Below are positions 55,741-59,520 of a DNA stretch of 64,000 nucleotides, in pieces. Where the stretch lies: the NCBI GenBank assembly GCA_026988525.1, contig JALSLC010000006.1, forward strand, positions 123 through 64,122, in the 5' to 3' direction. The position numbers and the translations under genes were made by a program. Origin of the DNA: Archaeoglobaceae archaeon (lineage in GTDB: Archaea > Halobacteriota > Archaeoglobi > Archaeoglobales > Archaeoglobaceae). The notes under the pieces were generated by a model that was not told the DNA's origin, did no database searches, and saw only the letters and a list, made by a program, of their open reading frames with translations. Position 1 is the first letter of the stretch. The number at the start of each line of letters is the position of its first letter.

Positions 55741-56001
55741 TCACAATACATCATTGTTCAAAATTGATTTAACGTAATTAAATATTTTAGTTGCAAGCTC
55801 CTCGCTATCGCACTCAATCACTAAACCCAGATTTTCATTTATCTTAAACCTGAGAGAAGGTAAAATTTCTGAACTTACACTACCAGCAACATAGGACCAC
55901 CTTTTACCAATTATTTCAGCAAACCAAACACTAACTCCAAACTCTTTCCAAATTTTTTCGGCCAATTCTTCGAGTTTAGAAGTATATATCTCTCTCACCA
56001 T
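55741..56001 (-). CDS. 86-aa hypothetical protein overlapping the 3' end of hydG
   Basis: ORF overlaps the hydG stop by 26 nt, same strand. No recognisable motif ('MVREIYTSKLEELAEKIWKEFGVSVWFAEIIGKRW...'). Confidence 0.4.
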   Translation of the reverse strand: MVREIYTSKLEELAEKIWKEFGVSVWFAEIIGKRWSYVAGSVSSEILPSLRFKINENLGLVIECDSEELATKIFNYVKSILNNDVL

Positions 56002-57484
56002 CTTCTATCCTACTCAAGTACTCCATCAACTTTTCAAATGTTCTTTCAGGAACTAATTTTTTAACTTCTTCAATTTCTCTACTCAAAATTTTTGTACCTA
56101 TTTCTCTCGTTTCATCACTTGCAAAATCCTCCAAGTATTCTTTGTAAGTTAGAATTGCATTGAGCTTGCAAAATATCTTTTCTTTACCAGTTTTAAGTAA
56201 TTTCATTATTCTAATACCTGTTCTACCACATCTATACCCGGCTGTACAAAATGAAACTATATATCCCATTTCTGCTAACCATCTGACTCCTTCATCTAAC
56301 TCTCTTGTATCCCCAAGAATAAATTGCTGTTTTTCAGCTTCCTGTTCGTTGTAACTTTCTCTATATGACCCAATACCAATTTTTGAACCAAAATCAGTTT
56401 GGGTTACTCCTAAGTGAATTACTCTCCTTCTTATATGCTCTGGTTCTCTTGCAGTCAGTATCATACCTGTGTAAGGTATAGCTATTCTAACTGTAGCTAT
56501 AAATTTCATAAAATCCTCATCAGATACCTTATAAGCAGAATTTTGAACAAAAGGTGTGTTGGCTGCAGGCCTCAGCCTAGGAAAACTTACTGTATGTGGG
56601 CCTATTCCAAATTTTTCTTCTAACTCTAAAGCGTGAGATAACAACGCCAAAACTTCAAACCTCCAATCGAACAACCCAAGTAAAACACCTATACCTACAT
56701 CATCAACTCCCGCCTCTAAGGCCCTATGCATACAGTATAATCTCCAAAAGTAGTTACCTTTTATTGTATCAGGTGGATGAACTTCTGAATAAGTTTTCAT
56801 ATGGTATGTCTCTTGAAACACCTGAAATGTGCCAATACCAACATCTCTTAAAATTTCAAGTTCTTCCACAGTCATTGGAGCAGCATTAACGTTCACTCTC
56901 CTAATTTCCCCTCTACCACCTCTCTTTCCTTTAACTCTAACACTGTATATTGCTTTAAGAGTGTTGGCTATATAGTTGACATCGGAAAGTGGATGTTCCC
57001 CATACGATGTTATAAGTCTTTTATGCCCCATCTTTGCAAGTATCTCCGCTTCTTTCTTTACTTCATCCAAAGTTAGCCTTCTCCTAATTTCTACACTATT
57101 CTCCCTTCTAAAAGCACAATAAAGACAGTTATTAACACAGTAGTTAGAGCAATACAAGGGTGCAAAAGTAACTATTCTGTTGTCATATACTTGCTTTTTT
57201 ACAATACTTGCTGTATGAAAAATTTCCTTCCAAAGATCTTCATTTTTAACGTTCAATATTGCAGCACAATCCTCCAAGGATATGCAATCCTTGTTTTGTA
57301 AAACCTCATCCATTATACTTCTAATTTTACTTGGACTTGGATCTCTATTTTCTTTTAAACATTTCCATATTTTCTTTTCATCAATAAATGATTTTTTATT
57401 ATCCATGTATTTAGAAAAACCATCGTCTCCTTTTAACCGATCTTCCATCCACTTTTTAGCTACATTGATACTTTCAACCCACAT
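55976..57484 (-). CDS. hydG: HydG-like radical-SAM [FeFe]-hydrogenase maturase (tyrosine lyase family)
   Basis: Radical-SAM 'CVNNCLYC', 'FQVFQETYH', 'DDVGIGVLLGLFDWRFE', 'GPHTVSFPRLRPA', C-terminal cluster domain 'SFCTAGYRCGRTG...FCKLNAILT', terminal 'RDIYF'. 502 aa. Divergent from hydA. Confidence 0.85.
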   Translation of the reverse strand: MWVESINVAKKWMEDRLKGDDGFSKYMDNKKSFIDEKKIWKCLKENRDPSPSKIRSIMDEVLQNKDCISLEDCAAILNVKNEDLWKEIFHTASIVKKQVYDNRIVTFAPLYCSNYCVNNCLYCAFRRENSVEIRRRLTLDEVKKEAEILAKMGHKRLITSYGEHPLSDVNYIANTLKAIYSVRVKGKRGGRGEIRRVNVNAAPMTVEELEILRDVGIGTFQVFQETYHMKTYSEVHPPDTIKGNYFWRLYCMHRALEAGVDDVGIGVLLGLFDWRFEVLALLSHALELEEKFGIGPHTVSFPRLRPAANTPFVQNSAYKVSDEDFMKFIATVRIAIPYTGMILTAREPEHIRRRVIHLGVTQTDFGSKIGIGSYRESYNEQEAEKQQFILGDTRELDEGVRWLAEMGYIVSFCTAGYRCGRTGIRIMKLLKTGKEKIFCKLNAILTYKEYLEDFASDETREIGTKILSREIEEVKKLVPERTFEKLMEYLSRIEDGERDIYF

Positions 57485-57624
57485 CGTTGTAAATTGACGG
57501 TCACGTAATATTAAATTTACTCAAATTTTTAATACATTATAAAACAAATTTCGTAAAATAGATATACTTAAGATCGACTGTAGGTTAAAAAGTGAATAAA
57601 AAATATGTATATTGGGGGGTTAAA

Positions 57625-59520
57625 ATGGCACAAGTAACAATAGATGATAAAATTATTGAAGTGTCTGAAGATATTACCGTAGAGGAGTTAATGAAAAAAG
57701 AGGGCATTGAATTCTGGAGGCCTTTTGAAGTGCCTCAAATGGAGTTTATACATAACAAAGATTGTCCTCTTATAAACATTGTTGAAGTAGATGGGGCTAT
57801 AGCTACTCCGAAAAAAATCAGACAAATGAAAGTAAAAGATGGAATGGTTATCAAAACGAAATCAGAAAAAATAAAGAAAACCTTAGAAGAAAGACTAAAA
57901 AAACTTGAAGAAAGAAAGGAATGCCATTTAATTAGACTTCTTCAAGAGTTTACTGCAATTGAAGCCGAAAATGCAGGAATAGTATCTCTTGAAGAGAGAA
58001 AGAACTGGAAATTTGAAGGATGGAAATCAGAACCAGCAATAGTGTACGATCCCGAATTATGTATAAGATGTGGAAATTGCGTTGAAACTTGTAAAAGTGT
58101 TCAAAGTGTTGAAGCTATAAAAATGGATGAAGAAAAAGGAGTAATACTTGTAGATGAGGCAAGATGTACAAGGTGTGGACAGTGCATTCATGCTTGCCCA
58201 ATGGGTTTAGAAAATGAAAAAATAAAAATATTCAAAGAATTTAATGGTTGTAAGCTTTGCCCGTATTCAAGACCATACAGCGCTATAAGAGAGATAGACC
58301 ATACAAAGATTGTTTGGGAAGCGTTAAAAGATAAAGAAAAATTTGTAGTTGTACAGTTTGCTCCATCAATGAGAGTTAGTATTGGAGAAGAGTTTGGATT
58401 GAAACCAGGTGAGATAGTTGTTGGAAAAATTTATGCTGCTTTAAGAAGGCTGGGATTTGACAGAGTATGGGATACAAACTTTGCTGCCGATGAAACAATA
58501 ATGGAGGAAGGAACTGAACTAATATGCCGTTTTATAAAAGCTGGAATAATAAACAAAGATAATGTAAAGGGTATTAAAATTACAGATGAAATGTTAAAGA
58601 ATATCTCAGATAAATTACCTCAATTTACATCATGCAGCCCGGGATGGGTTAAGTTCTGCGAAACGTTTTATCCGGAATTAATAGACCATATATCTTCTGC
58701 AAAATCACCACAACAGATGTTTGGTGCTACTGCAAAAACCTATGCAGCGTTAAAACTTGGAATTGATCCAGAAAAAGTTTTTGTAGTATCAATAATGCCG
58801 TGTACAGCTAAAAAATTTGAAAGAGAAAGAGAAGAAATGTGTTCAGCTTGGAAATGGTTGAAGGAAAATGGATATATTTCTGAGTATACACCACCCTTCC
58901 CAGATGTAGATGTTGTATTAACTACAAGAGAGTTTGCTAAATTGTTGAAAATGGCAGGTATAGACTTAGCCAAAATGCCTGATGAAGAACCAGATTCATT
59001 ACTTGGGAAATATACTGGAGCAGCAGCGATATTTGGAAGGACGGGTGGTGTAATGGAAGCTGCTTTGAGAACTGCATACGAGTTGATAACTGGCAAAAAG
59101 TTAGAAAAATTAGAGTGGGAAGAATTGGAAACCTTAGACGGTATAAAATCTGCAACAATAAAACTTAATGGTAAGGAAATAAAAGTTGCTGTTGCTCATG
59201 GGCTAAATAATGCAAGAAAAGTTTGTGAATCTGTTAAAAACGGTGGAGAGATGGCAAATTACCACTTCATAGAGTTTATGGCGTGTCCCGGTGGATGCAT
59301 TGGAGGAGGTGGACAACCAGAACCAACCAACTTAGAAAGAATAAAAGCAAGAATCCATGCTTTAAACGTTCACGATAGAAATTTACCGCTCAGAAAATCT
59401 CACGAAAATCCAGAAATACTACAAATGTACGAAGACTTCTTTGAACATCCTATTAGCGAAAAATCTCATGAATTACTACACACAAAGTATGTAGATCGAT
59501 CTATACACCTAAAACAATAA
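57625..59520 (+). CDS. hydA: [FeFe]-hydrogenase catalytic subunit (HydA, CpI-like multidomain architecture)
   Basis: H-cluster motifs L1 'TSCSPGW' (variant), L2 'MPCTAKKFE', L3 '[16 protein letters not shown]'. Also '[11 protein letters not shown]', two ferredoxin motifs '[11 protein letters not shown]' and '[12 protein letters not shown]', and the C-terminal '[17 protein letters not shown]...HELLHTKY'. The ATG at 57625 is preceded by GGGGGG. Confidence 0.9.
   Translation: [631 protein letters not shown]

Follow-up and report, generated by a model that had tools for sequence, protein, structure and literature searches.

Does a HydG whose auxiliary-cluster motif lacks its second cysteine remain a HydG, and which residue then takes the place of the missing ligand? 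[FeFe] hydrogenases owe their iron centre to HydG, the accessory enzyme that assembles it. The question is raised by a 64,000-nucleotide stretch of DNA from an Archaeoglobaceae archaeon (GenBank assembly GCA_026988525.1, contig JALSLC010000006.1, positions 123 to 64,122 of the forward strand), referred to here as the window. Its hydG gene codes for a protein with the spacing CX5CX19C in place of CX2CX22C. The window protein is a genuine HydG, a normal archaeal representative of a HydG subtype that is known and widespread; judged from sequence comparison, the second ligand of this subtype has most probably been displaced by three residues. The gene and its relevant sites are as follows:

55976..57484, minus strand: hydG of the CX5CX19C subtype, 502 aa with an ATG start, coding for a radical-SAM tyrosine lyase / [FeFe]-hydrogenase H-cluster maturase
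57116..57139, minus strand: N-terminal radical-SAM motif C116-X3-C120-X2-C123 (CVNNCLYC), from the translation; all three cysteines are invariant in an alignment of 32 HydGs (A2)
56633..56635, minus strand: codon CAC of His284, aligned with His266 of the 4WCX chain; an invariant column in A2
56168..56248, minus strand: auxiliary-cluster motif C413-X5-C419-X19-C439, in which Gly416 takes the canonical second-cysteine site, from the translation and the alignment with 4WCX

The protein reaches 461.3 bits with the HydG equivalog model TIGR03955 (rSAM_HydG), for a cut-off of 312.15, and the match covers profile positions 8-470 of 470. Its score with the ThiH model TIGR02351 is 249.5 bits for a cut-off of 380, and this match stops at residue 409, before the C-terminal domain. 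The sequence-only reading had taken the protein for a HydG, as opposed to a member of a ThiH- or BioB-type clade, and these scores bear it out. Pfam recognizes Radical_SAM and BATS domains, and the closest solved structures, 4WCX (E = 7e-136) and 4RTB (E = 3e-106), are both HydGs. In a neighbor-joining tree, calculated without bootstrap, the CX5CX19C clade is monophyletic and nested inside the HydG representatives, while ThiH-length sequences fall outside.

The C-terminal domain (approximately residues 410-502) aligns with the ~90-residue C-terminal domain of 4WCX. An AlphaFold2 (AF2) model calculated from 32 sequences has a mean predicted local distance difference test (pLDDT) score of 90.7. 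Foldseek superimposes it on 4WCX_A, C-terminal domain included, with a target-normalised template-modelling (TM) score of 0.97 and a root-mean-square deviation of 1.5 Å. In this model, the C-terminal domain is made of helices (pLDDT 84-98): C413 comes after a β-strand, residues 415-418 form one helical turn, C419 lies just past this turn, and C439 is located within a long helix. His284 faces His266 of the 4WCX chain in the alignment, presumably a ligand of the dangler Fe, and almost every full-length HydG representative at 50% identity keeps this histidine, whichever the motif type. A conserved histidine has been described to bind the dangler Fe (review PMC10114646), and H284 is probably that residue.

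The motif segment itself reads SFCTAGYRCGRTGIRIMKLLKTGKEKIFCKLNA. The codons are TGT for C413 (56246-56248), GGG for G416 (56237-56239), TGT for C419 (56228-56230), and TGC for C439 (56168-56170). The first to the last cysteine thus cover 27 residues inclusive, exactly 56168-56248, and the GGG codon differs from TGT/TGC at two positions. The phmmer alignment with the Thermoanaerobacter italicus (Ti) HydG of 4WCX is ungapped over the motif (Ti SYCTACYRMGRTGDRFMSFAKSGQIHNFCLPNA vs window SFCTAGYRCGRTGIRIMKLLKTGKEKIFCKLNA): C394, C397, and C420 of the Ti chain are found opposite C413, G416, and C439, and M400 opposite C419. The sequence-only reading had described a middle cysteine displaced by three residues within an unchanged span, and a glycine, two bases away from a cysteine codon, at the vacated position. 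Both features are read directly from the codons, and alignment with this characterised HydG does not restore the canonical CX2C. The window HydG is therefore not of the canonical CX2CX22C subtype, Gly416 being located where the second cysteine (+3) would stand.

This arrangement is shared by all close relatives. A set of homologues was assembled from the best 120 matches in a 5.8-billion-protein collection, at 59-100% identity to the window HydG. All 120 carry SFCTAGYRCGRTG...[FLMY]CK[LV]NA, hence a glycine at +3 with a cysteine at +6, a constancy that neither chance nor a sequencing error could produce; a sequencing error had also been discounted in the sequence-only reading. The core common to the window protein, its 120 nearest homologues, and the HydGs AAM24772.1 and AIS52284.1 is [ST]FCTAGYRCGRTG...FCK[LVI]NA. 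Carriers of the motif span at least eight bacterial phyla plus Archaeoglobaceae. The source names among the homologues include Thermoanaerobacter uzonensis, Caldanaerobacter, Thermodesulfovibrio, Thermodesulfobacterium, Syntrophorhabdaceae, Syntrophales, Omnitrophota, Elusimicrobiota, Calditrichota, and Latescibacterota. P0121, which represents the clade at 50% identity, stands for a cluster of 789 members, among which is the gut Bacteroidota genus Butyricimonas. Archaeal and bacterial members of the clade share 59-65% overall identity, and C413, C419, and C439 are invariant in it. The motif is thus not peculiar to this gene or to a local module, as had been supposed; it is a signature that a large HydG subfamily carries without variation, with a spacing already present in the literature.

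The comparison with canonical HydGs reveals a strict alternation. Position +3 (Ti 397) is a cysteine in 138/138 canonical HydGs and a glycine in 120/120 proteins of the CX5CX19C type, whereas position +6 (Ti 400) is a cysteine in 120/120 of the latter and in 0/138 of the former. An arbitrary metagenome sample was scanned with the pattern F-C-T-A-[C/G]-Y-R-x-G-R-T-G, which allows either residue. Among the 120 genes matched, written as the residues at +3/+6, 107 were canonical (C/x), 12 were G/C (~10%), none was C/C, and one was G/A with a cysteine at +11. The two cysteines were never found together in any sequence examined.

In addition, about 25 positions are fixed differently in the CX5CX19C subfamily and in canonical HydGs. 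These include F407I, A411L, and I416E (Ti numbering) in the C-terminal domain, S342T, S345D, and T350I (Ti numbering) in the 361-371 stretch, which is presumed to face the C-terminal domain, and G89D (Ti numbering).

A few sequences depart from both types. Locus L032 (12380, plus strand) reads CTAGYRAGRTGC, with a glycine at +3 and a cysteine at +11. A small sister cluster, P0122, reads CTAGYREGRTG, with a glycine at +3, a glutamate at +6, and no third cysteine nearby. In loci L047, L062, and L140, the G/C combination is followed by an otherwise canonical-looking tail, FM..A..G....C.PNA.

Such a strict either/or distribution of cysteines is the trace expected of a relocated metal ligand, which suggests a ligand swap. 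The window protein can be considered, with good confidence, a functional HydG of a distinct and widespread subfamily in which the second cluster thiolate is provided by the cysteine at +6 (C419) and not by that at +3. As in other HydGs, the radical-SAM barrel would cleave tyrosine, and the C-terminal helical domain would hold an auxiliary [4Fe-4S] cluster whose dangler Fe would serve as the assembly site of the Fe(CO)2(CN)(Cys) synthon. C419 would replace the +3 cysteine as the second of three protein thiolate ligands, position +3 being fixed as a glycine, and the ~25 further subfamily-specific substitutions would go along with this shift. We infer that C419 indeed ligates the cluster and that the synthon chemistry is unchanged.

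The subtype is accompanied by a second, much smaller gene:

55741..56001, minus strand: conserved, unannotated small open reading frame (ORF) of 86 aa, overlapping the 3' end of hydG by 26 nt

A homologue of this small ORF lies directly 3' of hydG in every fetched locus of the clade (L001-L009 and L013-L022), in bacteria as well as archaea, and one is called at the matching position in L144 and L145. Using a hidden Markov model of the small ORF, it was detected in 24/32 G/C loci and in 0/93 canonical loci with room downstream; 8/12 of the metagenomic G/C loci are devoid of it. Its alignment (A1) displays 12 invariant columns, including W26, E29, G32, R34, S36, Y37, G40, and P48. No match was found in Pfam, NCBIfam, or the PDB. 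A single-sequence AF2 model predicts an α-β4-α arrangement with a pLDDT of 72, for which Foldseek returned no significant match in the PDB (best E = 0.17). Judged by its distribution, the small ORF is a lineage-specific companion of the CX5CX19C HydG subtype.

On its other side, hydG adjoins a divergently transcribed hydrogenase gene:

57485..57591, strand not applicable: divergent intergenic region between hydG and hydA, 107 bp, AT-rich
57592..59520, plus strand: hydA, group-A-like [FeFe] hydrogenase, 642 aa; Pfam Fe_hyd_lg_C and Fe_hyd_SSU; TIGR02512 at 460 bits
58627-58641, plus strand: HydA L1 motif TSCSP (within FTSCSPGW), the serine codon, AGC, being a single base away from TGC; intact L2 and L3

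The L1 serine aligns with the second cysteine of TSCCP in 8A6T, presumably the [4Fe-4S]H ligand known as Cys300 in CpI. TSCSP is found in 95/120 of the best HydA homologues, so this serine, too, is a clade feature. A literature search for "TSCSP" retrieved only a Melainabacteria paper. The sequence-only reading had seen relocated cluster ligands in both HydG and HydA and had proposed to check whether the two variants vary together. TSCSP HydAs do occur near a CX5CX19C HydG in the window and L007, L001/L002, L004/L005, L008, L115, and L145. However, locus L144, the closest and fully syntenic relative, has the same HydG motif (HydG 84% identical) adjoining a HydA whose L1 reads FTSCCPGW (TGC TGT); one base substitution is thus enough to switch the L1 residue within one lineage. 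TSCCP hydrogenases also stand beside a CX5CX19C HydG in L001, L004, L008, and L047, and a canonical HydG adjoins a TSCSP HydA in L051. Counted by lineage, a TSCSP HydA is nearby in 6/8 cases for CX5CX19C HydGs versus 1/6 for canonical ones, a difference that is not significant (Fisher two-sided p = 0.10). The idea of a co-varying module made of the HydG motif and the HydA L1 serine was rejected on these grounds.

The window is archaeal in content. It encodes homologues of Orc1/Cdc6, GatD, Mre11, and the geranylgeranylglyceryl-phosphate and digeranylgeranylglyceryl-phosphate synthases, together with digeranylgeranylglycerophospholipid reductase, Mer, CofH, and DsrAB. ARAGORN found no tRNA gene in the whole 64 kb, nor did any Rfam family reach its gathering threshold there. 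The genome contigs were scanned with exact peptide patterns of the window HydG, which reach only close relatives; they returned one locus, L007, from an Archaeoglobaceae metagenome-assembled genome. The order hydA / hydG / small ORF / pdaD / GGGPS (geranylgeranylglyceryl-phosphate synthase) / UbiA-type prenyltransferase / ... / orc1 is kept in three assemblies (window, L007, and L144). The GC content of hydG and hydA (0.35) and their GC content at third codon positions (GC3, 0.24-0.26) are the same as those of the neighboring archaeal genes, indicating that hydG and hydA are resident and neither chimeric nor a very recent insertion. A recent horizontal transfer and a chimeric contig were ruled out on this basis. 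Acquisition of the archaeal hydG, along with hydA, from thermophilic bacteria is probable, at a time remote enough for its base composition to have become host-like. TM1266-like and aspA-like genes were found neither in the window nor in L007, nor less than 10 kb from hydG in L144. The terms "Archaeoglob" and "Halobacteriota" are absent from the main text of a 2024 survey of archaeal [FeFe] hydrogenases (PMC11216029).

In relatives, the CX5CX19C hydG is found in larger maturation loci. In Thermodesulfovibrio (L001/L002) and Thermodesulfobacterium (L008), the gene order is aspA-like, hydG (CX5CX19C), small ORF, hydF, and hydE, beside two hydrogenase loci. The L001 hydE is confirmed by TIGR03956 (322 bits), and a TM1266-like gene lies upstream of aspA in Thermodesulfovibrio. 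In a 73%-identical relative (L004/L005), hydG, the small ORF, and hydF are accompanied by serine hydroxymethyltransferase (SHMT), an aspA-like gene, and a second hydF, and the hyd genes adjoin hdrACB-flpD-hydA and hydAB-cytochrome b. In the former of these clusters (hdrA-hdrC-hdrB-flpD-hydA, L004/L005, 1-9498), HydA is of the TSCSP type (633 aa), which suggests a heterodisulfide-reductase-linked [FeFe] hydrogenase. It is accompanied by a HydAB resembling that of Desulfovibrio, with a b-type cytochrome, and by a radical-SAM gene that is truncated at the end of the locus.

Another archaeal contig, L145 (10001-17443), recognized by its MCM, Cdc6, and AsnC-type regulators, carries in succession hydG (CX5CX19C), the small ORF, hydC, hydB, hydA (TSCSP, NuoG-like), hydE, and hydF. 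The arrangement has the appearance of a complete bifurcating [FeFe]-hydrogenase system, maturases included, in an archaeon. SHMT and a PALP-family enzyme are encoded a few kb upstream of the operon. The aspA and SHMT links agree with what has been published about the dithiomethylamine ligand (PMC11736057).

Can these data be explained otherwise? A sequencing, assembly, or alignment artefact has a negligible probability, since the change involves two codons and, in one of them, two bases, the alignment with 4WCX requires no gap, and the identical motif occurs in hundreds of independent assemblies. The GC content of the module (0.35) is also close to that of the host (0.342), and no point in support of an artefact was found. 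It is hardly more probable that the auxiliary site is degenerate, leaving a ThiH-like tyrosine lyase that delivers dehydroglycine and CN- without assembling the Fe(CO)2(CN) synthon. The glycine at a canonical ligand position would fit with such a loss, as would the P0122 sister cluster, which retains neither cysteine. However, C413, C419, C439, and H284 are invariant throughout the clade despite the 59-65% identity between its archaeal and bacterial members, unlike a decaying site; the C-terminal domain is kept in full and modelled at high confidence, and this type of HydG is found in hydGFE operons.

A third explanation, unlikely though less so than these two, is that of a functionally diverged HydG paralogue. 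Its remodelled site and small ORF would yield a modified product or serve a particular class of hydrogenases, for instance the TSCSP HydAs. Several points count against the main reading of a functional HydG with a relocated ligand. Both HydG types are named for T. uzonensis, and the single T. kivui genome (2,411,034 bp) holds a canonical HydG, AIS51777.1 (466 aa), beside AIS52284.1 of the CX5CX19C type (501 aa). This coexistence leaves room for functional divergence. The ~25 subfamily substitutions and the subfamily-specific small partner ORF show that the auxiliary site has been remodelled and not merely shifted. Both hydE and hydF are absent from the 64-kb window, from L007, and from the region up to 10 kb away from hydG in L144. 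In favor of the main reading, the Caldanaerobacter protein AAM24772.1 is of the CX5CX19C type. We infer, from accession arithmetic and from the single gene listed as "most like HydG" in the C. subterraneus genome, tte1568 (Kelly et al., PMC4694547), that AAM24772.1 is tte1568. It would also be the biochemically studied "TteHydG" from T. tengcongensis, whose auxiliary cluster is located in the C-terminal domain, the deletion of which abolishes CO formation (PMC10114646).

Divergence is further suggested by Syntrophorhabdaceae, in which the CX5CX19C type is accompanied by the small ORF and a TM1266-like gene, and the canonical HydG of the same family with aspA, hydF, and hydE; these canonical and G/C-type HydGs stem from different assemblies. 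The association of the small ORF with G-type hydG only and the enrichment of nearby TSCSP HydAs point in the same direction. However, this enrichment is neither significant nor exclusive, as the loci cited above attest, and the small ORF is missing from two thirds of the metagenomic G/C loci. The CX5CX19C protein is moreover the HydG of complete hydGFE operons and the only HydG homologue listed for Caldanaerobacter. As the CX5CX19C type is the sole HydG in some genomes and a second copy in others, the two subtypes form paralogous lineages, able to stand in for one another or to occur side by side. Relocation of the second thiolate in a functional HydG therefore remains the preferred explanation. 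A more ambitious proposal, in which the CX5CX19C HydG, along with the small ORF translationally coupled to it, constitutes a distinct branch of H-cluster maturation, is improbable. If true, it might involve, for example, an altered cluster potential, a different synthon hand-over, or no need for HydE/HydF. The hydrogenase matured in Archaeoglobaceae, which show only hydA, hydG, and the small ORF side by side, would then be one in which a serine can occupy the [4Fe-4S]H ligand position.

The value of these observations is mostly corrective: the textbook CX2CX22C motif is not universal for HydG. In an arbitrary metagenome sample, CX5CX19C accounts for about a tenth of the HydG genes, and less frequent versions have a cysteine at +11 or a glutamate at +6. 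Motif-based HydG screens will consequently miss real maturases, and such screens have been shown to struggle in acetogens (PMC9431212). The manner in which the cluster would be held by the relocated thiolate is a modest question, which arises because the solved HydG structures found are canonical. Of more interest than the motif itself are the presence of both subtypes in some genomes, such as that of T. kivui, the conserved unannotated small ORF, and an Archaeoglobaceae lineage endowed with an [FeFe] hydrogenase and HydG. The coexistence of two HydGs in T. kivui raises the question of whether they serve different hydrogenases, such as HydABC and HDCR.

How, finally, does the window HydG compare with known systems? 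A literature search for "HydG2", "HydG-like", or "second HydG" returned nothing relevant. A PDB search retrieved 4WCX and 4RTB (Carboxydothermus hydrogenoformans) as the only HydG structures, both canonical and none of the CX5CX19C subtype. The window protein shares with them its fold (TM 0.97 and 0.86) and 46% and 38% sequence identity, respectively. The radical-SAM motif and the conserved histidine are shared as well, as is the C-terminal domain, with the first and last cysteines in register. It differs from them by its second ligand at +6 instead of +3 (CX2CX22C), by the ~25 positions fixed differently, and by some 35 additional residues with short insertions; the canonical hydG genes examined are also not followed by the small ORF. 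ThiH (2-iminoacetate synthase, 7PD1) is more distant: its radical-SAM tyrosine-lyase barrel is homologous (E = 1.5e-44, residues 64-408), but it is devoid of the ~90-residue C-terminal domain and of the cluster that this domain carries.

Two HydGs come closer with respect to the motif. The C-terminal Fe-S cluster of Clostridium autoethanogenum HydG (CLAU_RS03260) has been assigned to a C-x(5)-C-x(19)-C motif at residues 386-412 (PMC9431212), and that article cites Duffus et al. 2012 for the variability of HydG C-terminal motifs. The CX5CX19C spacing is therefore already published, though reviews still quote only CX2CX22C. This HydG has the same 27-residue span as the window protein; compared by its published motif only, it may belong to the clade or represent an independent relocation. 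The closest parallel is AAM24772.1 of Caldanaerobacter subterraneus subsp. tengcongensis, a 501-aa member of the same subfamily (TSFCTAGYRCGRTG...FCKLNA) with ~63% identity to the window HydG. In its locus, L006, the same small ORF follows immediately downstream of hydG. Unlike its archaeal counterpart, this bacterial gene stands alone, away from hydA.

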